Source: Spironucleus salmonicida (lineage: Eukaryota). Taken from it: a stretch of 64,000 nt of DNA. Position numbers and translations under genes: made by a program. The DNA lies in the NCBI RefSeq assembly GCF_000497125.1, contig NC_090601.1, positions 1,178,001 to 1,242,000 on the forward strand, written 5' to 3'. The notes under the pieces are model-generated. The model was not told the origin of the DNA. It searched no databases and saw nothing but the letters and a program-made list of their open reading frames with translations. This document shows, in pieces, positions 5,351 through 59,423 of the stretch; within the stretch, counting starts at the first letter, position 1; each line of letters starts with the position of its first letter.

Positions 5351-6020
5351 TTTATATTTATTATGATTCAAATTTATACTTTGCAAATATTACATCGTAA
5401 AGTAATATTCACTTAATTTGTTAATATATCACACTAATATATATCAATAAAGCAAAATATCTTATTTAATTTGAAATCCGGACGTTAGAATGATAATACT
5501 TAAAGCAGATTTGCTCTTTGTTAAACTTTAATTTTAAATTGCAAGATGAAATTTATATGAAATTTTACTAAAGTTAAATATTAGGGACTTCATTTATTTT
5601 TAATTAAATAAGAAGTTACAGTAATAAATTATAAGATCATATTTCATTAGATATTACTCTTAAATTATGACTAATATTTATTAACAAAAATTGACTGATA
5701 GATTCCAGTAGGCAAAACTTAAGTACATAATTGGTGAAAACTAGTAAACTTGAAACTATTTCGCAAGAATACTTATATATTGTACTTATTTGAATCATTT
5801 TCATGTATATTTCCTTAAACTAATAATGATATGATTATTTTATATATATTATAATTTTAATAAAATGGTATAAGTCACACATGTTATAGTCTTGTTCTGA
5901 TATATTTTAACATGATGGTAGAAGAATGAACAAGAAAGGTAAATATTTATAAATCTATAAAATTTAGCCTTTAATTTATTCAAGTAAATTATATCTTAAT
6001 CGTAATATTGACAAAATACA

Positions 6021-9000
6021 TCACCATTTCTTCTACTTGATATAGTCTGATGGGCCAGGGGCATCTTAAAATATTATATCTTACCGCACAGCTATAGTCT
6101 ATTATTTATTTAAAAGAGTGGATTATCCAGCATATTCTCCAGGCGCGGGTGTCACTTCTTTTTATGCCTTTGGAAATCTTTCATGTATAAGGAGTTCACC
6201 TGATTTTTATCGTGAGATTTAATAATCTCCTGGACCAGCTGTAATTTTTAAAGGTTTGACCTCAGACTGGGAGAAGGGCTGAACCTTGGCGTCGAAAATG
6301 CCCTCTCTGCTCTGGTCATACGCGCCTGGGCCGGGCTTCCTATCCTGGTGTGGATCCGCGTGGCGGTCACCAATATATGCGCCAGCCGCTGTGGGCTGAG
6401 GACGGACGTTATAGGGGCCAGGAGTAGGCTCGATCGCGGCCTCTCGCTTGTCATAGATCGCACCGCCCTTAGAAGTGAGGGTGGAGCCGGCTGCTATCAT
6501 GGGGATGTCATTTACCTCGGGGCGGGCGTTATCCCGGTCGCTCTAAGGCATCATGCCGCCTTTAGCTTCCCAGACTGCGGGGGCCTGGTAGTCGGCTGGG
6601 CCGGGACCTTAGTTCACGGGTGCATCGCGTCTGACGGCAATGGTACTTGGGTTCACCTCGCGCTGTTTCGCCTCATAGGCACCTGGGCCTGGAGTGGCCT
6701 TCTTGGCAGGTGCTGCCATTTTGTTTCCAATATTTCCGCCTAGGACACTGCGTTCGAGATTGGGGTTGTAGTCACTGGGGCCGGCCGTCTATCTGGGTTG
6801 CTTGACCTCAGACTGGGAGAAGGGCTGAACCTTGGCGTCGAAAATGCCCTCTCTGCTCTGGTCATACGCGCCTGGGCCGGGCTTCCTATCCTGGTGTGGA
6901 TCCGCGTGGCGGTCACCAATATATGCGCCAGCCGCTGTGGGCTGAGGACGGACGTTATAGGGGCCAGGAGTAGGCTCGATCGCGGCCTCTCGCTTGTCAT
7001 AGATCGCACCGCCCTTAGAAGTGAGGGTGGAGCCGGCTGCTATCATGGGGATGTCATTTACCTCGGGGCGGGCGTTATCCCGGTCGCTCTAAGGCATCAT
7101 GCCGCCTTTAGCTTCCCAGACTGCGGGGGCCTGGTAGTCGGCTGGGCCGGGACCTTAGTTCACGGGTGCATCGCGTCTGACGGCAATGGTACTTGGGTTC
7201 ACCTCGCGCTGTTTCGCCTCATAGGCACCTGGGCCTGGAGTGGCCTTCTTGGCAGGTGCTGCCATTTTGTTTCCAATATTTCCGCCTAGGACACTGCGTT
7301 CGAGATTAGGGTTGTAGTCACTGGGGCCGGCCGTCTATCTGGGTTGCTTGACCTCAGACTGGGAGAAGGGCTGAACCTTGGCGTCGAAAATGCCCTCTCT
7401 GCTCTGGTCATACGCGCCTGGGCCGGGCTTCCTATCCTGGTGTGGATCCGCGTGGCGGTCACCAATATATGCGCCAGCCGCTGTGGGCTGAGGACGGACG
7501 TTATAGGGGCCAGGAGTAGGCTCAATCGCGGCCTCTCGCTTGTCATAGATCGCACCGCCCTTAGAAGTGAGGGTGGAGCCGGCTGCTATCATGGGGATGT
7601 CATTTACCTCGGGGCGGGCGTTATCCCGGTCGCTCTAAGGCATCATGCCGCCTTTAGCTTCCCAGACTGCGGGGGCCTGGTAGTCGGCTGGGCCGGGACC
7701 TTAGTTCACGGGTGCATCGCGTCTGACGGCAATGGTACTTGGGTTCACCTCGCGCTGTTTCGCCTCATAGGCACCTGGGCCTGGAGTGGCCTTCTTGGCA
7801 GGTGCTGCCATTTTGTTTCCAATATTTCCGCCTAGGACACTGCGTTCGAGATTAGGGTTGTAGTCACTGGGGCCGGCCGTCTATCTGGGTTGCTTGACCT
7901 CAGACTGGGAGAAGGGCTGAACCTTGGCGTCGAAAATGCCCTCTCTGCTCTGGTCATACGCGCCTGGGCCGGGCTTCCTATCCTGGTGTGGATCCGCGTG
8001 GCGGTCACCAATATATGCGCCAGCCGCTGTGGGCTGAGGACGGACGTTATAGGGGCCAGGAGTAGGCTCAATCGCGGCCTCTCGCTTGTCATAGATCGCA
8101 CCGCCCTTAGAAGTGAGGGTGGAGCCGGCTGCTATCATGGGGATGTCATTTACCTCGGGGCGGGCGTTATCCCGGTCGCTCTAAGGCATCATGCCGCCTT
8201 TAGCTTCCCAGACTGCGGGGGCCTGGTAGTCGGCTGGGCCGGGACCTTAGTTCACGGGTGCATCGCGTCTGACGGCAATGGTACTTGGGTTCACCTCGCG
8301 CTGTTTCGCCTCATAGGCACCTGGGCCTGGAGTGGCCTTCTTGGCAGGTGCTGCCATTTTGTTTCCAATATTTCCGCCTAGGACACTGCGTTCGAGATTG
8401 GGGTTGTAGTCACTGGGGCCGGCCGTCTATCTGGGTTGCTTGACCTCAGACTGGGAGAAGGGCTGAACCTTGGCGTCGAAAATGCCCTCTCTGCTCTGGT
8501 CATACGCGCCTGGGCCGGGCTTCCTATCCTGGTGTGGATCCGCGTGGCGGTCACCAATATATGCGCCAGCCGCTGTGGGCTGAGGACGGACGTTATAGGG
8601 GCCAGGAGTAGGCTCGATCGCGGCCTCTCGCTTGTCATAGATCGCACCGCCCTTAGAAGTGAGGGTGGAGCCGGCTGCTATCATGGGGATGTCATTTACC
8701 TCGGGGCGGGCGTTATCCCGGTCGCTCTAAGGCATCATGCCGCCTTTAGCTTCCCAGACTGCGGGGGCCTGGTAGTCGGCTGGGCCGGGACCTTAGTTCA
8801 CGGGTGCATCGCGTCTGACGGCAATGGTACTTGGGTTCACCTCGCGCTGTTTCGCCTCATAGGCACCTGGGCCTGGAGTGGCCTTCTTGGCAGGTGCTGC
8901 CATTTTGTTTCCAATATTTCCGCCTAGGACACTGCGTTCGAGATTGGGGTTGTAGTCACTGGGGCCGGCCGTCTATCTGGGTTGCTTGACCTCAGACTGG

Positions 9001-12000
9001 GAGAAGGGCTGAACCTTGGCGTCGAAAATGCCCTCTCTGCTCTGGTCATACGCGCCTGGGCCGGGCTTCCTATCCTGGTGTGGATCCGCGTGGCGGTCAC
9101 CAATATATGCGCCAGCCGCTGTGGGCTGAGGACGGACGTTATAGGGGCCAGGAGTAGGCTCGATCGCGGCCTCTCGCTTGTCATAGATCGCACCGCCCTT
9201 AGAAGTGAGGGTGGAGCCGGCTGCTATCATGGGGATGTCATTTACCTCGGGGCGGGCGTTATCCCGGTCGCTCTAAGGCATCATGCCGCCTTTAGCTTCC
9301 CAGACTGCGGGGGCCTGGTAGTCGGCTGGGCCGGGACCTTAGTTCACGGGTGCATCGCGTCTGACGGCAATGGTACTTGGGTTCACCTCGCGCTGTTTCG
9401 CCTCATAGGCACCTGGGCCTGGAGTGGCCTTCTTGGCAGGTGCTGCCATTTTGTTTCCAATATTTCCGCCTAGGACACTGCGTTCGAGATTGGGGTTGTA
9501 GTCACTGGGGCCGGCCGTCTATCTGGGTTGCTTGACCTCAGACTGGGAGAAGGGCTGAACCTTGGCGTCGAAAATGCCCTCTCTGCTCTGGTCATACGCG
9601 CCTGGGCCGGGCTTCCTATCCTGGTGTGGATCCGCGTGGCGGTCACCAATATATGCGCCAGCCGCTGTGGGCTGAGGACGGACGTTATAGGGGCCAGGAG
9701 TAGGCTCGATCGCGGCCTCTCGCTTGTCATAGATCGCACCGCCCTTAGAAGTGAGGGTGGAGCCGGCTGCTATCATGGGGATGTCATTTACCTCGGGGCG
9801 GGCGTTATCCCGGTCGCTCTAAGGCATCATGCCGCCTTTAGCTTCCCAGACTGCGGGGGCCTGGTAGTCGGCTGGGCCGGGACCTTAGTTCACGGGTGCA
9901 TCGCGTCTGACGGCAATGGTACTTGGGTTCACCTCGCGCTGTTTCGCCTCATAGGCACCTGGGCCTGGAGTGGCCTTCTTGGCAGGTGCTGCCATTTTGT
10001 TTCCAATATTTCCGCCTAGGACACTGCGTTCGAGATTGGGGTTGTAGTCACTGGGGCCGGCCGTCTATCTGGGTTGCTTGACCTCAGACTGGGAGAAGGG
10101 CTGAACCTTGGCGTCGAAAATGCCCTCTCTGCTCTGGTCATACGCGCCTGGGCCGGGCTTCCTATCCTGGTGTGGATCCGCGTGGCGGTCACCAATATAT
10201 GCGCCAGCCGCTGTGGGCTGAGGACGGACGTTATAGGGGCCAGGAGTAGGCTCGATCGCGGCCTCTCGCTTGTCATAGATCGCACCGCCCTTAGAAGTGA
10301 GGGTGGAGCCGGCTGCTATCATGGGGATGTCATTTACCTCGGGGCGGGCGTTATCCCGGTCGCTCTAAGGCATCATGCCGCCTTTAGCTTCCCAGACTGC
10401 GGGGGCCTGGTAGTCGGCTGGGCCGGGACCTTAGTTCACGGGTGCATCGCGTCTGACGGCAATGGTACTTGGGTTCACCTCGCGCTGTTTCGCCTCATAG
10501 GCACCTGGGCCTGGAGTGGCCTTCTTGGCAGGTGCTGCCATTTTGTTTCCAATATTTCCGCCTAGGACACTGCGTTCGAGATTGGGGTTGTAGTCACTGG
10601 GGCCGGCCGTCTATCTGGGTTGCTTGACCTCAGACTGGGAGAAGGGCTGAACCTTGGCGTCGAAAATGCCCTCTCTGCTCTGGTCATACGCGCCTGGGCC
10701 GGGCTTCCTATCCTGGTGTGGATCCGCGTGGCGGTCACCAATATATGCGCCAGCCGCTGTGGGCTGAGGACGGACGTTATAGGGGCCAGGAGTAGGCTCG
10801 ATCGCGGCCTCTCGCTTGTCATAGATCGCACCGCCCTTAGAAGTGAGGGTGGAGCCGGCTGCTATCATGGGGATGTCATTTACCTCGGGGCGGGCGTTAT
10901 CCCGGTCGCTCTAAGGCATCATGCCGCCTTTAGCTTCCCAGACTGCGGGGGCCTGGTAGTCGGCTGGGCCGGGACCTTAGTTCACGGGTGCATCGCGTCT
11001 GACGGCAATGGTACTTGGGTTCACCTCGCGCTGTTTCGCCTCATAGGCACCTGGGCCTGGAGTGGCCTTCTTGGCAGGTGCTGCCATTTTGTTTCCAATA
11101 TTTCCGCCTAGGACACTGCGTTCGAGATTGGGGTTGTAGTCACTGGGGCCGGCCGTCTATCTGGGTTGCTTGACCTCAGACTGGGAGAAGGGCTGAACCT
11201 TGGCGTCGAAAATGCCCTCTCTGCTCTGGTCATACGCGCCTGGGCCGGGCTTCCTATCCTGGTGTGGATCCGCGTGGCGGTCACCAATATATGCGCCAGC
11301 CGCTGTGGGCTGAGGACGGACGTTATAGGGGCCAGGAGTAGGCTCGATCGCGGCCTCTCGCTTGTCATAGATCGCACCGCCCTTAGAAGTGAGGGTGGAG
11401 CCGGCTGCTATCATGGGGATGTCATTTACCTCGGGGCGGGCGTTATCCCGGTCGCTCTAAGGCATCATGCCGCCTTTAGCTTCCCAGACTGCGGGGGCCT
11501 GGTAGTCGGCTGGGCCGGGACCTTAGTTCACGGGTGCATCGCGTCTGACGGCAATGGTACTTGGGTTCACCTCGCGCTGTTTCGCCTCATAGGCACCTGG
11601 GCCTGGAGTGGCCTTCTTGGCAGGTGCTGCCATTTTGTTTCCAATATTTCCGCCTAGGACACTGCGTTCGAGATTGGGGTTGTAGTCACTGGGGCCGGCC
11701 GTCTATCTGGGTTGCTTGACCTCAGACTGGGAGAAGGGCTGAACCTTGGCGTCGAAAATGCCCTCTCTGCTCTGGTCATACGCGCCTGGGCCGGGCTTCC
11801 TATCCTGGTGTGGATCCGCGTGGCGGTCACCAATATATGCGCCAGCCGCTGTGGGCTGAGGACGGACGTTATAGGGGCCAGGAGTAGGCTCGATCGCGGC
11901 CTCTCGCTTGTCATAGATCGCACCGCCCTTAGAAGTGAGGGTGGAGCCGGCTGCTATCATGGGGATGTCATTTACCTCGGGGCGGGCGTTATCCCGGTCG

Positions 12001-13727
12001 CTCTAAGGCATCATGCCGCCTTTAGCTTCCCAGACTGCGGGGGCCTGGTAGTCGGCTGGGCCGGGACCTTAGTTCACGGGTGCATCGCGTCTGACGGCAA
12101 TGGTACTTGGGTTCACCTCGCGCTGTTTCGCCTCATAGGCACCTGGGCCTGGAGTGGCCTTCTTGGCAGGTGCTGCCATTTTGTTTCCAATATTTCCGCC
12201 TAGGACACTGCGTTCGAGATTGGGGTTGTAGTCACTGGGGCCGGCCGTCTATCTGGGTTGCTTGACCTCAGACTGGGAGAAGGGCTGAACCTTGGCGTCG
12301 AAAATGCCCTCTCTGCTCTGGTCATACGCGCCTGGGCCGGGCTTCCTATCCTGGTGTGGATCCGCGTGGCGGTCACCAATATATGCGCCAGCCGCTGTGG
12401 GCTGAGGACGGACGTTATAGGGGCCAGGAGTAGGCTCGATCGCGGCCTCTCGCTTGTCATAGATCGCACCGCCCTTAGAAGTGAGGGTGGAGCCGGCTGC
12501 TATCATGGGGATGTCATTTACCTCGGGGCGGGCGTTATCCCGGTCGCTCTAAGGCATCATGCCGCCTTTAGCTTCCCAGACTGCGGGGGCCTGGTAGTCG
12601 GCTGGGCCGGGACCTTAGTTCACGGGTGCATCGCGTCTGACGGCAATGGTACTTGGGTTCACCTCGCGCTGTTTCGCCTCATAGGCACCTGGGCCTGGAG
12701 TGGCCTTCTTGGCAGGTGCTGCCATTTTGTTTCCAATATTTCCGCCTAGGACACTGCGTTCGAGATTGGGGTTGTAGTCACTGGGGCCGGCCGTCTATCT
12801 GGGTTGCTTGACCTCAGACTGGGAGAAGGGCTGAACCTTGGCGTCGAAAATGCCCTCTCTGCTCTGGTCATACGCGCCTGGGCCGGGCTTCCTATCCTGG
12901 TGTGGATCCGCGTGGCGGTCACCAATATATGCGCCAGCCGCTGTGGGCTGAGGACGGACGTTATAGGGGCCAGGAGTAGGCTCGATCGCGGCCTCTCGCT
13001 TGTCATAGATCGCACCGCCCTTAGAAGTGAGGGTGGAGCCGGCTGCTATCATGGGGATGTCATTTACCTCGGGGCGGGCGTTATCCCGGTCGCTCTAAGG
13101 CATCATGCCGCCTTTAGCTTCCCAGACTGCGGGGGCCTGGTAGTCGGCTGGGCCGGGACCTTAGTTCACGGGTGCATCGCGTCTGACGGCAATGGTACTT
13201 GGGTTCACCTCGCGCTGTTTCGCCTCATAGGCACCTGGGCCTGGAGTGGCCTTCTTGGCAGGTGCTGCCATTTTGTTTCCAATATTTCCGCCTAGGACAC
13301 TGCGTTCGAGATTGGGGTTGTAGTCACTGGGGCCGGCCGTCTATCTGGGTTGCTTGACCTCAGACTGGGAGAAGGGTAATGATCTAGATAAATTAAAAAT
13401 TTATCTTTTATTTTCATAAGTTCCAGGACCTGGTATTCTTTACTTGTGAAGTGTCTCATGCTTCTCACCTATGAATCCACCAACAGGTGTTTCTTTTTTC
13501 GGGAAAAAGTAAAACCCTGGTGTGATATTTTGTTAATCTGGTAGCTTAGGATGTATATTCCCATGGGTATTTCGAAAAGTTGATTTTCCAGTGACATAAT
13601 CTTTTGGACCAAGATGATCTACATTGGCTCTAAGTTGTTTACCTGCTGATGATGTCCTACTTTAAAGCTTCTACTCCTTTTTCTTTTATATTGCATTTAA
13701 TTAAATCTAAGCTCTAATATCTTCCAT
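6021..13727 (-). CDS. Sperm-tail PG-rich (STPG/SHIPPO-repeat, ODF3-like) axonemal protein, 2568 aa
   Basis: Single table-6 frame from ATG 13727 to TGA 6021; recurring PGPGAY/PGPADY/AGPSDY/PTPGPY motifs inside and outside the tandem array. Confidence 0.88.
6256..13376. repeat. Coding tandem array: 13 units of 546 bp (182 aa) plus 23 bp, GC-rich
   Basis: ORF-track starts recur every 546 bp (6500, 7046 ... 13052); the only differences seen are G>A at 7308/7854 and 7524/8070. Confidence 0.98.
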
Positions 13728-14306
13728 ATTTTATAAATAGAAATAAATTTTATTATAATTATGTATAATATATAGGCTATTTATTTAGTTTTTCTTCAAT
13801 AACAATATTATTATTATTATTATATTGTGATATTTATAATTTTTTCTTATTTTAGTTAATATTTATATTTCATATGAAATAATAGGAATTTATTTGCTTA
13901 GGTTAATTTTGTAGACAATATTTATTATTTTTAATATAGATATTAACAAGATAATATATTTTATTATTATATTTTAGACAATATATTTAATAAATTTTAC
14001 GATAATATCTATAAACTGATAAATATACTTATTTAAAATTATTTAATATTAAATCAGGGATGTTCTTAAAACTCAACGATTATGATATACCTTGAATATA
14101 ATTGAATCTAGGAAATAAAAAGTAAGAGTATTACTTAGATAGGTAATTGTTAATATGAATATGGTTTTAGAATAGTTAATAATAACCTTTAACAATTCGA
14201 TTCAATGAAATTGCTTATATAAATTTTATTAATAATATAAACTTTTAGTTCTAAATTCTATTTATTATATACAATATATAATAATATTATCCATTCCATA
14301 ATTTTA

Positions 14307-16232
14307 ATGCTTTAGGCACTTTAAACAAAATCTATTCCATTAGTCAACGTTGCTTTATAATAAGACTTCAGATTGCCTTTCTATAATCTTAATTAATTAT
14401 AATAACTAATTTAACTTCTTTCATAATTTTCAGAAACGTCAACTCATGCCGTTATAGCAATATAAATCATCAAAAAAATATAGTATAATGAAAATGTCAT
14501 GTCAGATACTTCTTAACTTTTAACATAGCTATTATTATCTCTAATTAAAAAATTTGAGACAGACAAATAAGTAATTGTTGACTCAGTTGGAATACTTAGA
14601 GTCCTACTCTAAAGATTTTCTAAATTTGTATTTGGAAGCCTTAAGCTATATTTATAAGAAAATTAATAAAATAATACTATTTTAATATCATACGCTGCCC
14701 TTTTACCTCAGTTATTAAATGTAACTTAATAAGAGTCGCTATAACTATCAAATTAGATTAGAATAAAGCTATCAGAGTAAGATTTCTTATCTCCTGTAAC
14801 AAATGGGATTCTTTCATTAGTAGATACAGGTAAATTTTAGTTTCTTGATTCATAAAAATATTTTGATGATCTACACAATAACTACATTAATCGAATCTGT
14901 CCAACCTCTAAACAATAATAAGAGCCTCTCATTCACCCATAAATTACAATTTCTTAAAATGTTATTAATTTAGTTATATCACTCCAATAATTGGCAGAAT
15001 AATTAAACCCAGAAGCCCTTTAGATTTTTGCTGCTATATCAATCAAATCTACTTAAATATTGCAGATTTTTATTAAAATTCTTTAAAATTCCACTGCATA
15101 AAAATTAAATTAACAATAATATGAGTAAATATTAGAAATTATATGTTACTTTACAGTTAAAACTAATGTTCTGAATAGTGAAATTTTAAGAGTTTTCTAG
15201 TAATTCTTAAGATCAGAATTACTTCAAAATTGTAGCCTTTTAGCATAGTTACATATTTCTCGAATTTGCTAGATTATTGTTCAAAACCGAAATTTGGTAT
15301 AGAATAAATTTTTAGGTGACATTTTTTCATATTTGCATAAAGCAGTAATAAATATTAATTAACTGAATAATTTTGAGATCTTTGATAAAATTAAAAAGGG
15401 AATGGAAAGCTAATAATTCAACCCAATGCTAACCCCTTAAATACAGTCTTCTTAACCACCACCTGTTTAAAACAAACTTGTTCGTTCATTTATAATTTAA
15501 ATTCTTTTCAATATTTCTCTTCTTTCTGATTTTGATGGGTTCTAGTAAGAAATTTATGATTTGCTTTTCGAAATAAAAATAGTAAATTCAATTTCTGTGT
15601 ATCGACTTCTGGCTGGAGATATTATTGCTATAAGCGAAAAATCAATTTTTTTTATGAATTTGATGAAAAGTGGTGCTAGGGACCCATAATGGAGGTGTAG
15701 AAAATAGTCATTTTTGTATTTTAATTAAAATTTTACCAAACAGTTTTACGTTGTGCCATAACGATTAGATTTTCCATATTTTGAGTCTAAAAAACTAGTT
15801 TCTGAAACATTATTAACAGATAGTGATGTAACTGTCTTTTAGTGCTTAGTTGATCCTGTTAATATTATTCAGCAGTTAGGGATTACTTTAATTTAGTAAC
15901 AATATAATTAACTATTTAATGATACTACACCTTTGCAGTTTTAGAGTTATTTGACTTAGAATATATAATAATACATATAAATTAGTAATAGTGTCTATTA
16001 ACCTAGTGAAAAAGTGCTTTTTGCATTATAAGTGGCTAGGTGCTGTGCTATGATAAGTAAAATTTTAAGACATTCAACAAACTAATTTTAATCAATTTCA
16101 AGTATTCTTAGCGACATTTCTCGTGACTTTTACCAGTGTGTTTGCTGCGTTTATAGCTTTTTAGAGGAAAGAGGTGGTCCTGAATGGAAAGGTGAAGTAT
16201 TGAAAATTGAAAAAGAAGGGAGTGAGGTATGA
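14307..16232 (+). CDS. Hypothetical protein, probable armadillo/HEAT-type helical repeats, 641 aa
   Basis: ATG and TGA in the same frame; helical motifs such as VDSVGILRVLLQ; C-rich ATCCATTCC upstream. Confidence 0.7.
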
Positions 16233-30925: not shown

Positions 30926-31885
30926 TCACTCGCACGCGCGGTCCAGCTCGGGGCCGCCCCACTCCTGCCGCACGCGCAGCACGCGCCCCGCGTTCCTGGC
31001 GTAGAAGCCCTCCACCTCGAGGCCCCGGGCGCGCAGCTCGGCGCAGTTGGCCTCCAGGCGGGCGCGGTCGCGCACCAGGTCCAGCAGCACCTGCACGAGG
31101 GCGGGCGGGGCGCTGGCGCTGAAGCAGTACCCGAGGCCGCCGTAGCGCTGGTTCTCCACCAGCAGGCGGCTGCCGCACACGAAGCCGCACGAGACCCCGT
31201 ACGCCGCGTGGAAGCAGCCCGCCACGAGGTCGAAGTTCCCCAGCTCCGGCTGCAGCGGCGCCATCAGGTTGTTCAGCAGCACGCGCACCCCCAGCGCCGC
31301 CCCCACGCGCTTCGCGAGCAGCAGGTCCGCGGGCACCGGGAAGCCCGCCTCGAAGCGGTGCGAGTCCACCGCCAGGAAGGGGCGCGCGCCGGCCAGCTTG
31401 CAGCGCAGGGCCGCCATCTCCGCGGCGAAGGCCTCCGGCGCGAGCGCCCCGAGCCCGGACAGGTCCAGGCCCACCGCGCGCTGGGTCTCGGCGCAGCGGG
31501 CGAGGTTGGGGGAGCTGCCGGGCTGCAGCAGCACGGTGTCGCAGCCGCACGCCCCGAGCGCGCTCTGCACGGCGGTGCTGGAGCAGCTGTAGAGCACGCA
31601 GGGCAGCCCGTGGAGCCGCTCCAGCGCCATCTCGAGCTGCACGTGCGCGGCGAAGGTGCCCAGGAAGCCGCGCGGCCCGCAGGACCCGAGCGAGTAGTGG
31701 CGCAGGTAGCACGCGAGGCGGTCCAGGGTCTGCTGGCGGAGGCCCGCGGGTTCCAGGAACGCGTCCGGGGCGGCGCTCTCGGGGGGCTGCACGGGGTCCG
31801 CGGAGTCGGGCTGGCGCAGCTGGCGGCGCACGGACTGCGATACCGCGAGGAGCGCGAGCGAGGCGATGGCGAGGGGCCTGAGCAT
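30926..31885 (-). CDS. LCB1: Serine palmitoyltransferase subunit 1 (LCB1/SPTLC1)-like, 319 aa (copy 1)
   Basis: YSLGSCGPRGFLGT..HVQLE and QRYGGLGYCFSASAPP are LCB1 signatures; hydrophobic N-terminus. Confidence 0.85.
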   Translation of the reverse strand: MLRPLAIASLALLAVSQSVRRQLRQPDSADPVQPPESAAPDAFLEPAGLRQQTLDRLACYLRHYSLGSCGPRGFLGTFAAHVQLEMALERLHGLPCVLYSCSSTAVQSALGACGCDTVLLQPGSSPNLARCAETQRAVGLDLSGLGALAPEAFAAEMAALRCKLAGARPFLAVDSHRFEAGFPVPADLLLAKRVGAALGVRVLLNNLMAPLQPELGNFDLVAGCFHAAYGVSCGFVCGSRLLVENQRYGGLGYCFSASAPPALVQVLLDLVRDRARLEANCAELRARGLEVEGFYARNAGRVLRVRQEWGGPELDRACE

Positions 31886-41418: not shown

Positions 41419-42378
41419 ATGTTCAGGCCCCTCGCCATCGCCTCGCTCGCGCTCCTCGCGGTATCGCAGTCCGTGCGCCGCCAGCTGCGCCAGCCCGACT
41501 CCGCGGACCCCGTGCAGCCCCCCGAGAGCGCCGCCCCGGACGCGTTCCTGGAACCCGCGGGCCTCCGCCAGCAGACCCTGGACCGCCTCGCGTGCTACCT
41601 GCGCCACTACTCGCTCGGGTCCTGCGGGCCGCGCGGCTTCCTGGGCACCTTCGCCGCGCACGTGCAGCTCGAGATGGCGCTGGAGCGGCTCCACGGGCTG
41701 CCCTGCGTGCTCTACAGCTGCTCCAGCACCGCCGTGCAGAGCGCGCTCGGGGCGTGCGGCTGCGACACCGTGCTACTGCAGCCCGGCAGCTCCCCCAACC
41801 TCGCCCGCTGCGCCGAGACCCAGCGCGCGGTGGGCCTGGACCTGGCCGGGCTCGGGGCGCTCGCGCCGGAGGCCTTCGCCGCGGAGATGGCGGCCCTGCG
41901 CTGCAAGCTGGCCGGCGCGCGCCCCTTCCTGGCGGTGGACTCGCACCGCTTCGAGGCGGGCTTCCCGGTGCCCGCGGACCTGCTGCTCGCGAAGCGCGTG
42001 GGGGCGGCGCTGGGGGTGCGCGTGCTGCTGAACAACCTGATGGCGCCGCTGCAGCCGGAGCTGGGGAACTTCGACCTCGTGGCGGGCTGCTTCCACGCGG
42101 CGTACGGGGTCTCGTGCGGCTTCGTATGCGGCAGCCGCCTGCTGGTGGAGAACCAGCGCTACGGCGGCCTCGGGTACTGCTTCAGCGCCAGCGCCCCGCC
42201 CGCCCTCGTGCAGGTGCTGCTGGACCTGGTGCGCGACCGCGCCCGCCTGGAGGCCAACTGCGCCGAGCTGCGCGCCCGGGGCCTCGAGGTGGAGGGCTTC
42301 TACGCCAGGAACGCGGGGCGCGTGCTGCGCGTGCGGCAGGAGTGGGGCGGCCCCGAGCTGGACCGCGCGTGCGAGTGA
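41419..42378 (+). CDS. LCB1: Serine palmitoyltransferase subunit 1 (LCB1)-like, 319 aa (copy 2)
   Basis: Same motifs; differs from copy 1 by L2F and S>A in LDL(S/A)GL. Confidence 0.85.
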   Translation: MFRPLAIASLALLAVSQSVRRQLRQPDSADPVQPPESAAPDAFLEPAGLRQQTLDRLACYLRHYSLGSCGPRGFLGTFAAHVQLEMALERLHGLPCVLYSCSSTAVQSALGACGCDTVLLQPGSSPNLARCAETQRAVGLDLAGLGALAPEAFAAEMAALRCKLAGARPFLAVDSHRFEAGFPVPADLLLAKRVGAALGVRVLLNNLMAPLQPELGNFDLVAGCFHAAYGVSCGFVCGSRLLVENQRYGGLGYCFSASAPPALVQVLLDLVRDRARLEANCAELRARGLEVEGFYARNAGRVLRVRQEWGGPELDRACE

Positions 42379-53795: not shown

Positions 53796-55692
53796 TCAGA
53801 ATATGAATCGATTACATTTTGCAATTTCACTTTCAACTTCAAACTAAACTGTATTGATTTACTATATCATCGCTTATATGTCGAGTAATATTTTAAATCG
53901 AATATTCCGATAACGAGTGTTAGACCTATAATGATCTTCAAACCAAAATGGAATAAAATTATTTGTAAATGCAATGTCACTACTAATATTTTCTATAATA
54001 AATGGCCATTTCTACTGTTGCAAATTGATATTTATTACACTTTCGTGTATTTCTAATTTCTACATATTAGCAGGTAGAAATCCTTTAAATAATGATATTT
54101 ATGATGCAGTAATAGTCAGATCAGTCAAACTATTGAACTAAGTCAAATTTAATTGACTAATTACATTATCACCAATATTTAAATATTTAACACAATATGG
54201 TATGTAATCATTTACTAGTTATATTTATTATTTTTATATTAAAATAAAAGTTTTAAGTTGGGAACAATTTCTGAGGTCTAAATTTTATACATTACAATGA
54301 ATTAATTACAGGGAAAACACAAAAGTTGGAATAAAAGAATTGGAAAACCTTAAATTATCAGAATTTCTACATTTTAACACTTATAAAGACTCTGCTATAG
54401 TAAGATCGAGATGTTTAATATTTGAATTAGAGAAATCAGCCTATATTAACGTATCTGGCAAAAGGGCACTTGTTAATAATATATTTGTGCCTGGTACATT
54501 AAGACTAGTTAGTTTAGTGTTTGTAGGGTTAAAATAAATTGGCTCTTATTTGTATTATTAACAGTTTGTTAAATATAACTTTTCTAACAATAAAGAATTA
54601 GCAATATTTACACCAGTAATATTACTATTTTATGCCGAAAAATAAAGCAAATTTGGTGGTAAGCCATCAATTTTAATTTCAGATGATTGATCTAAATGAA
54701 TTTCTTCTAATTTAATACAATTTTTAACACATAGTTTCAAATTTTAAATTTTATTAGCTTATAAAATTCGTAGCTGAGATGGTATAATACCATTTTATAT
54801 TTTTAATTCTTCACAACAATCAATATTAATAATTTATAGCACCTTACAATATTAAAGATTAATATTAATGTACTTACAAGTTCTAAGGAATAATTTTTCC
54901 AAATAATTTGGTATAAAATCGTTCTTAAAAACCATACCACTGCAATCATCATAATGAATATCTTTAAGGTTTACTGAAATACTCAAATCTAATGTAACTA
55001 TACTTGACTATTATGCAGTTACTGTTAAAATAGATGGTAATTATTAAGTAAAATCGATTAAACGCGATTACTGTAAATGTATTTATTTCAGCAACACGAA
55101 CTATGAAGAAATATTAATATTATCTGAATTAATAATTGAGAATGCTATAATATTAGATGGGCAGTTACACTATATATTATCACATCGTTCAAGGATAAGA
55201 GTTTATAAATTCTTATTTAAATTAATTGCTGATCGTTCACTGTGGATTAACACTAGTTATTATAACTAATCTGGTGTCTTTATTGCCAAGTCTTTGCTGA
55301 ATAGTTAGCTTTACTAAATTTACCAACGTTATATATCTTTAAAATACACTAAATGATAATATGTCGAATACTGTCAGTTCCTTCAAGCTTATTGGAAACG
55401 TACTTACTAATGAAAGACTGACATTATGACATAATTTTAAATATTCTAATTAAGATCCTTCAAAATTTATTAGTTCAATAGTACATCTCGTTATACTTAA
55501 GTCTTTTAAATTTTCTGTAACTGTAAATTCTTACAATATACATTAAGATAATTAAACTTTTTAAAGATTTTAATAAAAATCAGATTTAAAACATATTATA
55601 TTACAGTTAATTAAATCAATATTACTTCCTTAAAATTTATATTACGCTTAGTTAAAGTCTTCGCTAGTCAAGCTTAGTAAATCATCTTCCAT
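53796..55692 (-). CDS. Leucine-rich-repeat protein split by a +1 frame change near 55295 (pseudogene, sequence error or recoding)
   Basis: LxxLxL-type repeats on both sides; the ATG frame ends at TGA 55237-55239 while the adjacent frame is open from 55373 to 53796. Confidence 0.65.
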
Positions 55693-55755
55693 ATAATATT
55701 ATATAAATTATACTATAATATATATTGTCATTTTTATTTTTCCTTCCTAGATTAA

Positions 55756-57318
55756 ATGTCTAGCAAATAAAATTGGTCTAAATCATACAAAAAACCTTAA
55801 TAAGAAGACAAATATATCTAAAGGCTTCCATTTTTCTTCCGTCATTTGCCTGAATCTGAAATATAAAATTTAAAGTTACCACCACATGCTCCATACTCAG
55901 TGTCATCTTTTGATGACGCGTTTTAAAATGCATATTTTCTTTCAAAGGTGCTAAAAACTACCAAACTAGTAGTAGATCTTACTGCATGTTCAGGAGTTGA
56001 CTCCATTTGTATGGCAATGGTTTTCTAAAATCTTATTAGTTATGAAATAGATACTCCTGCTTTTGAGTCACTCTAAAATCATTTTTAGATTGCGAAAATG
56101 CAAGGTTACAATATTGGTAAGTATGAACTCAAAAACGAATCTGGTGCAGCTGAAATAAGTATTTCTCGTTAGAACACATTGTATTTTTTGGACCCTCCTT
56201 GGGGTGGTCCTGACTATAGAAACAAGTAAAATATTAGGTTAGATTATGGTGAGTATATAGTTGATGAACTAGCGAAAAAACTTAGTACAGATAAAACTAA
56301 TTCTGTATTTTTAAAGTTACCTAAAAACTACGATATGTCTTAGTTTGACTTACAAAATAGCATTATTTTTAAAGAACGGAATCAGATATTTGTGTTAATA
56401 TCTGATTAAGCTAATATTGCGGTTGCTAAGCAAATTAAGGAATCTGTTTATGATAACTCTGGGAGAAAAAAAATATAATCGTTAACCAGCTTAATTTAAT
56501 AAAATATTGGGGATCGTAAAGGTTTAACTGAAGCATTTAAGGATAATATGTTAGCACAGTAAGCTTAGCTAATGAATTAAAAATTAAATAAATATCGTAA
56601 ATTTAACGATTTTGGTTTTTTCCATTCTAAGTAGGTTAGTTTCGGGGTTATAACTGGTTTTGTAATTCCAGAAGCATAAAAAGGAGAAACTGATGGTCCT
56701 TCTGGAGCTATTAGACTTGCTATCATGCTTGCATTGAACTATAATGTAAAAATAACCATTTTTACTGAAAATATTCTTATTACACCCATATAAGAAATGC
56801 TTAAATACGTATATGGAATATTTCCATTCCTACCTTAATTTGAACTTATTTCTCCATCTAATCCTGAGATTAATTCTATATTTAAGCGATAAAATGTACT
56901 TTTTTATGTAGAAAAAGTAGGTCCTACTGTGTCTGGAAAACCACTATCAATGCGTGGAATTGATTGTTCTGAATTTGTTTCTGAATTATTTTCATCTATT
57001 GATGTACTCAGTTTTGGAATCGGTGATGGTGGAAATGAAATTGGTTGTGGTTGTGTAAATCCCGATATAAATTGTGTAATAAAGACAGATTTTGTTGTTT
57101 TATCTGATATAAGCAATTATGGTGCCGGATGGCTTTCAAGAATTATAAATTAACGCTGTTTTGCTAGATTTTTGATGTTAAACTTAGATGAACGTGAACT
57201 AGTATAAAGTGGAGTTAAACATGGGCTTATAGATGGTGTGACTTGTAAAAATGAAATTAGCGTTGATGGTGTTGACTTTGACATGTATTAATAAACGATG
57301 AAATAATTATATGAGTGA
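55756..57318 (+). CDS. Fusion: RNA cap guanine-N2 methyltransferase (Tgs1/Tgs2 family) + DUF4392/D-glutamate-cyclase-like C-terminal domain, 520 aa
   Basis: YSVS, VVDLTACSGVDSI, DPPWGGPDY (56191), LKLPKNYD; then VITGF..GETDGPSGA (56686), VEKVG..SMRG, GIGDGGNEIGCG (57016), SNYGA, GLIDGVT..SVDG; linker in frame with no TGA. Confidence 0.88.
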
Positions 57319-57342
57319 AATATATACTTAATAATATATAAA

Positions 57343-58473
57343 ATGAAAGAGAATGAGATTATTTTATATAAAAATTGTGAGATAACAATATCTGAAAATA
57401 ACGCAGTTAAACTTTAAATTAAATAATAAAATAATATATATATTGATGAGTTATTAGATTTACCCAAACTATAAGGAATAAGTGTTTAACTAAAAAATAT
57501 TTCGTAATAGTGCTAGTCAACTTTAGATTTACAGAAGTCGCTTCAGTAAAACAAGCTGCGTATTATTATCGTTAATAGTAGTTTTATATGTAACTAACTT
57601 TATGGATTTATGTTTCTTTATTTTTTAGAAATTAATGATTGTTTAGATAGAGATCATTCATTCTTAGATCTTCCTATCTCTTTAGTTTAATTAAAGATTG
57701 GTACACCTACTATTAAATAATTAAATACGTATTAACTTATCAACCTTGAAAAGCTACATATTAATACATTTGAGATTTCTATTTTGAATAATAATAAATT
57801 AATAAAGAATTAATAGGTTATTTCTTTTGAGTCTAGTTCAATAAAATAACTTGTTTTGAGCCTTTCCTCAGAAAATAAGATAGCTTATAAATTTATTTTC
57901 CCGTAATAATTATAAGAAATTACTTTTAACACTCATTCAAAAATATTGTTTCCTTTTATTCCAGCCGCAATAGAAATTGCAATATTTTAAAATGCAAACA
58001 TATCGACTATATAATTTAAGTAAAATAATAAGTTAAGACTATTATAATGCTAAAGCTGTACAATAAGTTGTTTAAATCTTTCTAATAAACAAAATTAAAC
58101 ATAATTTAACTTTGATTAAACATTTGTTTAAAAAGTTATATCAAAGTAATAAATAATTGATATTAGTCAATTTTAGGTTTAGAAACTGCTTATTTTAAAC
58201 TAATATTAATGCTAGCTTATAATTAAAAAATATAAATAGTTATAAAATTTAAGTATTTAAAATTACTATTTACCTTCTAATTTTTAAATTAAAATATGTC
58301 CTTCATTAAACCTATATACACTAAATAATATTTAAAATAGGAAATTATCAATATTGTGCCCACATATGTTCTAATTTAATAGATTAATTCAGTTAAATTA
58401 GTAGATTTATTAGATTTATGTATTAATCAAATAATATTAGTAAATTTTAAAAGATTTAACATATTTTTATTGA
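57343..58473 (+). CDS. Divergent LRR-like hypothetical protein, 376 aa
   Basis: LPKLQGISV, LPISLVQLKI, LINLEKLHI, FPQQLQEITF repeats. Confidence 0.62.
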
Positions 58474-58478
58474 AAATA

Positions 58479-59423
58479 TCATTCATTTGTAGATAAAAGC
58501 ATTGACATAACATTCATGAATTAATATCTAACTACAAGTTATTATAAACTTATTTTTTATCCACCAAAATTAATATTCTTTTCGCCTCCACAAAATTAGT
58601 CAATTATATGATAATATTCATGTTCAAATATATGGAAATATTCAAATGCCATTAATAACAAAGAATCTCGATGAATCTACATTTCAAAATCAAAATCTAT
58701 ATACACTTTAAGTTTATTCAACAGAAAATTAGCCAAATTACTATATACTTTTATGTCTTTATTAAATAGTATTTCGAATTTATCATAATATATTTCACCA
58801 CCTTTCTTTTAAACTAATTCTTCAAATTACTTAAGATCATAAAAATCAAAAATTTTACATTTTATTGACTATCTGTTAAAAAATAACGGTGATATTTGAG
58901 TGTAGTTCTAAATAGGTTTTTAAGATATTTTTTCTACCTAGTTTTAGGAATTTTGTATTCTACTACGACTTTAACTAACCAATTATTGCGATATTTCTAC
59001 TTATTTAGCTTATTCAAGTTACGAGCCGACTTTTTCTAAATCACTAATATTATTATCAATAAGTGTGTCATCTTTTTCTATAAATATGATATCTTTTTTT
59101 TCAGCAATAGGACTAAATTAGGTTACATTTTAAAATTTATTATGTTCATGATTTAGATGCGTCATTTTTTAAATAATTACTTGTTTTTGTTCTCTTTTGG
59201 TATGTTAAATCATTCTAATTTCATTCTTACATAATCTATTAATATTTTTAAGTAGTATTGGATTCTTCATTACATTGATCTTGTCAAATTTTGCAGCTTT
59301 AAGTGGTTTTCCATCTAGCATCCTCAAATCCGATAAATGAATAGATTTTTAATTTTTACATTCTGCAAACGATCCTGATGACCAGTATGAACGATAAGAC
59401 AATACTGACTGATATTCGTCCAT
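58479..59423 (-). CDS. Hypothetical protein, 314 aa
   Basis: MDEYQSVLSYRSYWSSGSF... to GAA TGA, convergent with the previous gene. Confidence 0.7.

Follow-up and report, generated by a model that had tools for sequence, protein, structure and literature searches.

The locus examined here raises two questions: whether a reading frame in which an RNA cap guanine-N2 methyltransferase of the Tgs type is followed by a DUF4392 domain corresponds to one gene, and what two such domains might do on one polypeptide chain. The frame occupies positions 55756-57318 of the forward strand in a stretch of 64,000 nucleotides (nt) from Spironucleus salmonicida, which was analysed as a whole and is subsequently designated the window. 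We consider it highly probable that the frame encodes a genuine, expressed two-module enzyme, in which a Tgs2-type cap N2-methyltransferase is joined to DUF4392 as an intact two-metal hydrolase module. The domains themselves are known; their combination is a new architecture, seen in one lineage. The following features are referred to below (aa, amino acid residues of the encoded protein):

55756-57318, forward strand: whole coding sequence, 520 codons followed by TGA, with TAA and TAG read as glutamine (Gln)
55756-55962, forward strand: N-terminal extension of the methyltransferase (aa 1-69) with F28 and Y47-S48-V49-S50, from alignment A4 and the AlphaFold (AF2) model
55963-56400, forward strand: core of the Tgs-type S-adenosylmethionine (AdoMet)-dependent methyltransferase (aa 70-215) with VVDLTACSGVD at 72-82, E97, N109, DPPWGGPDY at 146-154 and LKLPKN at 186-191
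56401-56484, forward strand: short linker (aa 216-243) without TGA or ATG, part of which (218-231) is modelled as a helix
56485-57309, forward strand: two-metal domain of the DUF4392/TON_0340 type (aa 244-518) with E311, D313, E386, D424, E428 and D504
57316-57318, forward strand: TGA stop codon, from the translation
57319-57331, forward strand: 3' untranslated region (UTR) of 13 nt up to the poly(A) site at 57331, from the A11 tail in run X1 and the contig ends at 57331 in three of four runs

One reading frame and one transcript

The frame was translated with table 6, in which TAA and TAG encode Gln and TGA is the sole stop; according to PMC11787283, this is the code of the Hexamitinae. An earlier note on this DNA had claimed a single open frame of 520 codons and, indeed, translation yields 520 residues followed by TGA. 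TAA or TAG occurs in frame 29 times (13 times in aa 1-235, 16 times in aa 236-520), and the reading with table 11 is interrupted 29 times, which bears out the remark in the note that the fusion is hidden under the standard code. Since only TGA stops translation, long open frames are common by chance, and many of them overlap in the AT-rich window. The status of 55756-57318 as a gene therefore derives from homology and from RNA contigs rather than from the openness of the frame.

Transcription was assessed using four public runs from one study, which carry the label 'RNA?' as a guess, none of them being recorded as RNA; their RNA nature was inferred from contig boundaries and an A-tail. Between 67 and 69% of the words sampled from 55400-57700 are present in the runs, and coding sequence makes up ~68% of this stretch. 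Mapping on 54800-58600 gave one contig of 1554-1585 nt in each run, which spans the gene, starts at 55758, 55767, 55771 or 55775 and ends at 57331 except in one run, where the end is at 57319. All four contigs align with 0 mismatches and 0 gaps, have no joints and leave no loose end at the linker. Beyond 57331, the contig of run X1 continues with 11 non-templated A residues, while the genome has T at 57332. The flanks 54939-55757 and 57332-58381 are uncovered in all four runs, and because they are silent while neighbouring genes do have contigs, the runs behave as RNA and not as DNA. The stretch 55756-57318 is one intronless, polyadenylated mRNA. Position 55756 is the likely start of the fusion gene, because an upstream in-frame ATG at 55426, which would extend the protein to 630 aa, is located in sequence without RNA contig (54939-55757); with a start at 55756 the 5' UTR is a few bases long. 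Only 11 nt separate the poly(A) site at 57331 from the ATG at 57343 of the next frame (57343-58473, forward strand), which is an extremely compact spacing, and this next frame is without cover in the four runs.

These data bear on the possibility that the fusion is an artefact, i.e. that two genes or a mis-assembly merely give a continuous frame in a code in which TAA and TAG are not stops. Very long chance frames, common under table 6 in AT-rich DNA, would favour such an explanation. However, neither TGA nor ATG occurs across the 28-residue gap between the domains, the junction is identical in the RNA-type contigs of all four runs, and the contig ends match the ends of the frame. The earlier note had suggested looking for transcripts across 56350-56550 and had named transcript ends near 56400 as an observation that would speak against the fusion; the former region is covered by one contig in each of the four runs, and no contig ends near the latter position. 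We regard an artefact as very improbable.

Conserved residues of the two modules

A Pfam-A scan of the 520-aa protein at E <= 1 returned two matches only. PF09445 (Methyltransf_15, RNA cap guanine-N2 methyltransferase) matches aa 70-215 with profile positions 2-148 of 165 (44.3 bits versus a cut-off of 22, E 1.9e-11), and PF14336 (GLUCM-like_C, the former DUF4392) matches aa 244-518 over nearly the whole profile, positions 2-290 of 291 (118.7 bits versus a cut-off of 27.9, E 4.4e-34). Both families that had been named beforehand thus score above their curated cut-offs. The motifs listed at the outset were likewise all recovered, those of the Tgs part being YSVS (aa 47-50), DLTACSG (74-80), DPPWGGPDY (146-154) and KLPKN (187-191) and those of the DUF4392 part ITGF, ETDGPSGA, SMRG, GIGDGGNEIG, SNYGA and DGVT..SVDG. 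A spacer of 28 residues separates the Tgs domain from the DUF4392 domain, and in the alignments it contains both the C-termini of Tgs relatives that stand alone and the N-termini of DUF4392 relatives that do so.

Human TGS1 is the sole match of the N half among PDB sequences (E 1.6e-4). Alignment A4 contains 38 sequences, i.e. the N half and 37 relatives, and represents a subfamily whose members are short and follow the pattern YS-I/V-T ... TD-TA--GGD ... E-D ... NN ... DPPWGG-DY ... LKLP-NYD. All 10 columns invariant in A4 are present in the window protein (M1, G80, E97, L106, D146, W149, G151, K187, P189 and N191). The AdoMet motifs are found as VVDLTACSGVD (72-82) with D74 and D82, in which V81 replaces the second Gly, and as ISYE with E97. 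The (S/D)PPWGG signature is present as DPPWGGPDY (146-154), W149 corresponding to the Trp that stacks on 7-methylguanosine (m7G), and the N-terminal cap pocket is represented by F28 and by Y47-S48-V49-S50, which takes the place of the F-S-V-T motif. The AF2 model of aa 1-235 reached a predicted local distance difference test score (pLDDT) of 89.9 and a predicted template modelling score (pTM) of 0.86, with pLDDT values of 85-95 from about aa 21 onwards. Its best PDB match in Foldseek was 3GDH (E 1.7e-10, template modelling score 0.68-0.77 over 215-220 columns), which is active human TGS1 with m7GTP and S-adenosylhomocysteine (AdoHcy) and a folded N-terminal extension; the model superposes on this structure. 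The best viral fold matches are cap N2-methyltransferases of Megaviridae.

According to PMC1865056, Tgs2 of Giardia lamblia carries the motifs 66-VIDGTACVGGD-76, 88-VAIE-91 and 140-DPPWGGVDY-148, and residues F18, T40, D68, D76, E91, N103, D140, P142, W143, Y148 and P185 are essential or important. They map in the same order to F28, S50, D74, D82, E97, N109, D146, P148, W149, Y154 and P189 of the window protein, a mapping that rests on the motifs and numbering quoted in PMC1865056 and not on the full Giardia sequence. By motif and spacing, F28 and S50 would be the equivalents of Giardia F18 and T40. The exchange of Thr for Ser (T40 to S50) is the one substitution across the mapped residues, and a T40S mutant of Tgs2 is described in PMC1865056 as retaining 41% of the activity. 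The Giardia enzyme and the mimivirus cap guanine-N2 methyltransferase, which is known here via its citation in PMC2709555, share with the window protein a DPPWGG motif with Asp rather than Ser, a Glu in the VAIE-type motif and an Asp ending motif I. They differ from the window protein, which adds a C-terminal DUF4392 domain of 285 residues and has Val for the second Gly of motif I. Relatives of the N half of this type are short stand-alone proteins, many of them encoded on giant-virus contigs.

Comparison with human TGS1 (3GDH, 3EGI), based on the residues named in PMC2709555, gives the equivalences W149=W766, P148=P764, S48=S671, S50=T673, D74=D696, E97=D719, P189=P806 and K190/N191=R807/N808. 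Unlike human TGS1, the window protein has Asp146 in place of Ser763 and Lys187 in place of Phe804, lacks the long N-terminal region and carries the C-terminal fusion. Asp in DPPW is described as the state of Tgs2 and of the mimivirus enzyme, whereas Tgs1 enzymes have Ser (PMC1865056; PMC2709555), and Phe804 of human TGS1 is proposed in PMC2709555 to pocket the first methyl group, thereby allowing addition of a second one. Lys187, which aligns with Phe804, is invariant in the A4 subfamily. That Giardia Tgs2 adds a single methyl group had been stated in the earlier note and agrees with PMC1865056. Because Asp146 replaces Ser763 and Lys187 replaces Phe804, the N half is predicted to be a one-methyl synthase as well, which would stop at 2,7-dimethylguanosine (m2,7G).

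By homology, the first module (aa ~20-215) would therefore be a cap guanine-N2 methyltransferase of the Giardia Tgs2/giant-virus type. Residues D74, D82 and E97 would hold AdoMet, while the m7G base would be stacked on W149 of DPPWGGPDY. D146 would act as proton acceptor during transfer of the methyl group to N2, and the product would be 2,7-dimethylguanosine, to which no further methyl group is added.

Relatives of this module are plentiful on giant-virus contigs: in IMG/VR, 427 of 456 pattern matches to the Tgs subfamily were confirmed. A protein of 1422 aa from NCBI, P0175, combines an mRNA guanylyltransferase, a cap N7-methyltransferase and a Tgs of the same subfamily on one chain and would be, in effect, a complete cap-to-hypermethylated-cap enzyme. 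This combination ties the Tgs subfamily to capping. In addition, a Tgs-like fold is contained in three Pithovirus entries of BFVD named 'Ribonuclease III' (A0A481Z646, A0A481Z8X6 and A0A481Z6A4; 530-865 residues), with E-values of 9e-11 to 2e-7 against the N-half model; judged from the models, these entries appear to be another giant-virus Tgs fusion. P0175 and the Pithovirus proteins resemble the window protein in that the same Tgs subfamily is a module within a larger chain. However, their partners are known RNA enzymes, whereas the partner in the window protein is an orphan domain.

The C half matches TON_0340 of Thermococcus onnurineus with E 3.2e-13. TON_0340 (PDB 4DWZ, 4FC5, 5GKX, 5GL2-4) is the only characterised DUF4392 protein. 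Its residues E59, D61, E115, D157, E161 and D246 (PMC5132392) correspond to the ligands E311, D313, E386, D424, E428 and D504 of the C half, which are invariant in an alignment of 24 DUF4392 sequences. The stretches ETDGP and GDGGNEIG, near-invariant in the family, are retained, and the C half was found to have the TON_0340 fold. Whereas TON_0340 is a stand-alone protein, DUF4392 of the window protein is the C-terminal part of a methyltransferase and falls into a distinct clade with the hallmarks GNEIGCG and VEKVGP. The only biochemistry available for DUF4392 is a weak Mn2+-dependent phosphatase activity, associated with a DHH/RecJ-like fold (PMC5132392). The fold scores are 9-11, compared with a Rossmann-like background of 8-9, so the margin is slight. 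By homology, the second module (aa 244-518) would bind two Mn2+/Mg2+ ions through D313, E386, D424, E428 and D504. E311 would activate a metal-bound water, and a small substrate would be hydrolysed in a small conserved cavity.

The earlier note had called the C half 'D-glutamate-cyclase-like'. Membership in the DUF4392/PF14336 family holds, but the cyclase part of this description is only a Pfam label. PF07286 (D-Glu_cyclase, the former DUF1445) has no match at E <= 1 in the 520-aa protein, and tblastn of the window with two prokaryotic PF07286 queries under table 6 gave a best E of 0.12. Because PF07286 is absent from both protein and window, 'D-glutamate-cyclase-like' is a label by association. 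The animal protein DGLUCY/C14orf159, composed of DUF1445 and DUF4392, has the C-terminal DUF4392 in common with the window protein, in which Tgs takes the place of PF07286 (PMC5132392; PMC5339696). The mouse study PMC5339696 leaves unassigned, as far as its account goes, which DGLUCY domain is the cyclase; a role of DUF4392 itself as the cyclase is unsupported.

One of the modules could also be a dead scaffold, DUF4392 for instance dimerising the methyltransferase, and TON_0340 is reported in PMC5132392 to be a homodimer in solution. Yet the window protein retains all six metal ligands, the near-invariant ETDGP and GDGGNEIG stretches and all essential Tgs2-equivalent residues. Dead domains usually lose their catalytic residues. 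A scaffold role appears improbable to us, and we infer that both modules are catalytically active.

Rarity of the pairing and origin of the halves

A HMMER search over 1.84 billion representative sequences with a threshold of E <= 1e-3 yielded 1859 hits, and of the top 150 none except the query has both catalytic domains; a fused relative should rank high, because the scores of both domains add up. In a word-indexed search, PF09445 was found in 0 of 119 other proteins among the matches listed, and the search with the N half gave one protein in the range of 286-910 aa, P0121, which has a glycosyltransferase partner, besides three shorter ones. DUF4392 was present within 3 kb of giant-virus Tgs genes at 0 of 80 loci and, vice versa, Tgs at 0 of 80 metagenomic DUF4392 loci. 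A metagenome scan with the fusion protein produced 39 pattern matches, none of which was confirmed. Scanning with A5, an alignment of the five-sequence clade described below, yielded 80 loci, all prokaryote-like and with <=33% identity, and hence no close environmental relative. Literature searches, which included papers mentioning DUF4392, turned up no description of a Tgs-DUF4392 pairing, in line with what the earlier note had said.

In the 1.84-billion search, the best match of each half is a protein of Hexamita inflata. The nearest DUF4392 protein, P0002, shares 37% identity over aa 246-520; it has 320 aa in all three near-identical copies and lacks a Tgs part. The nearest Tgs, P0130, shares 33% identity over aa 20-193 and has 408 aa (its cluster mate 492 aa). 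In H. inflata, none of the three DUF4392 copies shares a contig with any of the three Tgs copies: the contigs of the two sets have no length in common, and the genes are therefore separate and unlinked. P0130 and a second H. inflata Tgs, P0276, possess a C-terminal extension of ~200 residues without Pfam match. We considered whether the 200-residue tail of P0130 is a decayed DUF4392, which would imply an ancestral fusion, and rejected this idea: BLASTP aligns aa 20-193 of the query only, and a profile-profile comparison of the DUF4392 alignment A1 with this tail by hhalign gave a probability of 0.1%. In both H. inflata sets, the DUF4392 copies included, the annotated product is 'RNA cap guanine-N2 methyltransferase'. 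As stated in PMC11787283, other diplomonad genomes were the first source of H. inflata product names and a Trepomonas transcriptome was the second. Since the H. inflata DUF4392 proteins bear the Tgs name and names were borrowed from diplomonads, the fused protein is probably already present, unremarked and named after its Tgs half, in a reference annotation.

A quick maximum-likelihood tree of DUF4392 was calculated from 42 sequences, i.e. the C half and 41 hits selected by hand from the HMMER and word-indexed searches (the highest-ranked ones, a few with taxon names and multi-domain ones). In this tree, the C half groups with the H. inflata protein and with P0125, P0126 and P0127 in a clade of five (SH-like approximate likelihood ratio test, SH-aLRT, 95), and the prokaryotes included in the tree lie outside it. 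Of these relatives in the clade, P0127 is a DUF4392 protein that is complete and stands alone, whereas P0125 and P0126 (242 and 196 aa, on contigs of ~1 kb) may be fragments of genes shredded by the standard code. The two halves are similar in GC content (N half 0.309, C half 0.301) and differ little from neighbouring genes (0.20-0.29). A recent lateral transfer of the C half has no support, because GC content is alike, TAA/TAG Gln codons occur throughout both halves and the clade is separate from prokaryotes.

Other genes of the window are eukaryotic and flagellum-related, encoding a SHIPPO-repeat protein and a CCDC81 protein, and a cysteinyl-tRNA synthetase is encoded as well. Such neighbours, the H. 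inflata affinity of both halves, the TAA/TAG code, the very short UTRs and the lack of introns are in keeping with a diplomonad of the Hexamitinae type. The frame at 6021-13727 (reverse strand; 2568 residues, 56 TAA/TAG codons) forms an island of 58-60% GC in DNA of ~25% GC and consists of many near-identical P/G-rich repeats of ~220 residues, which match the Pfam SHIPPO-rpt family (sperm-tail PG-rich repeat). Tandem Repeats Finder (TRF) reported 0 repeats at 5500-14500, the repeat period being >500. The frames at 30926-31885 (reverse strand) and 41419-42378 (forward strand) are inverted copies of 319 residues, of which 317 are identical; they have 76% GC, in sharp contrast to their surroundings, no TAA/TAG codon and no Pfam match at E <= 0.001. 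The flanking frames at 53796-54935 (reverse strand), 55237-55731 (reverse strand) and 57343-58473 (forward strand) have the appearance of leucine-rich-repeat proteins by eye; the first and the last have no Pfam match at E <= 0.001. Rfam gave 0 matches at gathering score in the whole window.

Possible coupling of the two activities

Gene neighbourhoods of DUF4392 were evaluated at the 80 metagenomic loci from the A5 scan, 67 of which had a usable tblastn match. A biotin carboxylase gene is present at 10 of these loci. An RluA-type pseudouridine synthase gene, i.e. an RNA-modifying bacterial neighbour, precedes DUF4392 at 14 of the 67, directly (at a distance of 3-26 nt) in eight cases; seven of the 14 loci have the cyclase gene too. 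The latter (L082, L099, L108, L110, L120, L125 and L134) have the same-strand order RluA-type synthase, DUF4392, D-Glu_cyclase (PF07286). The synthases are 59-85% identical and hence form one related group.

Several observations weigh against one part or another of our reading as a genuine two-module enzyme whose activities may be coupled. A D-Glu_cyclase (PF07286) gene adjoins DUF4392 at 22 of the 67 loci, in 21 cases on the same strand, and DUF4392 is fused to NlpC/P60 in P0141, P0153, P0212 and P0262. Atlas clusters combine DUF4392 with D-Glu_cyclase and with a MurD-like ligase; as the best feature score (0.83) was below the level for counting, only structure entries were used and these are leads only. 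D-Glu_cyclase, NlpC/P60 and MurD-like ligases act on D-glutamate or gamma-glutamyl bonds. The context of DUF4392 elsewhere therefore points to D-glutamate and peptidoglycan-peptide chemistry, away from caps, while its structure and sole biochemistry point to phosphate or nucleotide chemistry. On the side of the methyltransferase, motif I has Val81 at a position that is Gly in at least 90% of the A4 subfamily. The transcript data come from one study in all four runs, and a case of two overlapping transcripts may be compatible with the contigs. Moreover, only a single genome is known to contain the fusion, which could be young and neutral. Conversely, fused relatives in other organisms reading TAA/TAG as Gln, including other Hexamitinae, could have been overlooked, because gene calling for most metagenome and public protein sets uses the standard code and breaks such genes up.

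There is close to an even chance that two unrelated genes were merged like beads on a string and kept their old jobs, the C module performing D-glutamate- or gamma-glutamyl-related chemistry. Such a neutral merger is consistent with an architecture known from one genome, with the minimal linker and the completeness of both domains, and with the DUF4392 partners just described. It is also consistent with the spacing of genes at this locus, where ~10 nt separate neighbours (11 nt from poly(A) site to next ATG), so that loss of a TGA could join them. However, the H. inflata homologues reside on different contigs, and no conserved neighbourhood that could have been read through is known; furthermore, a PF07286 partner is missing from protein and window. 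To our knowledge, diplomonads have no peptidoglycan of their own. Stable fusions usually combine functionally linked proteins (Rosetta-stone principle), which likewise argues against a neutral merger.

Functional coupling of the two activities is a serious but somewhat doubtful alternative. In the form of coupling that we favour, itself put forward only tentatively, the C module would be a phosphohydrolase whose substrate is a nucleotide-type ligand of the cap/AdoMet reaction, e.g. a cap-derived m7G or m2,7G nucleotide. In the corresponding enzyme, for which the chances are again well short of even, a Mn2+-dependent phosphohydrolase would act on a ligand or product of Tgs (m7G or m2,7G mono- and diphosphates from decapping, or the cap itself), and the protein would first methylate and then dephosphorylate. 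This proposal has to be set against the very low phosphatase rate of DUF4392, fold scores that barely exceed the Rossmann-like background, the D-glutamate context suggesting other chemistry, and the failure to find DUF4392 close to giant-virus Tgs or Tgs at prokaryotic DUF4392 loci.

If the fusion is read as a Rosetta stone, which we consider unlikely, the substrate of DUF4392 could be a conjugate of the adenosyl or guanosyl nucleotide type, and cap methylation and nucleotide clearing would be two steps on one chain. Candidates for the conjugate are a cap-derived methylated guanine nucleotide or an adenosyl-amino-acid by-product of methyl transfer. Were it true, the DUF4392 relatives linked to D-glutamate would act on nucleotide-activated or phosphorylated glutamyl compounds.

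If the halves are uncoupled, the fusion is a lineage-specific curiosity. In either case it illustrates that genes using TAA/TAG as Gln slip past protein catalogues made with the standard code, and it provides diplomonads with a Tgs2-type enzyme carrying an extra catalytic module, in a lineage whose cap hypermethylation is already unusual. DUF4392 is widely conserved: it occurs in archaea and bacteria and also forms the C-terminal half of human DGLUCY. Although its structure is solved, it is an orphan with regard to its physiological substrate. Fusion to an enzyme with defined ligands, i.e. AdoMet and m7G nucleotides, offers a short and testable list of candidate substrates for this domain.

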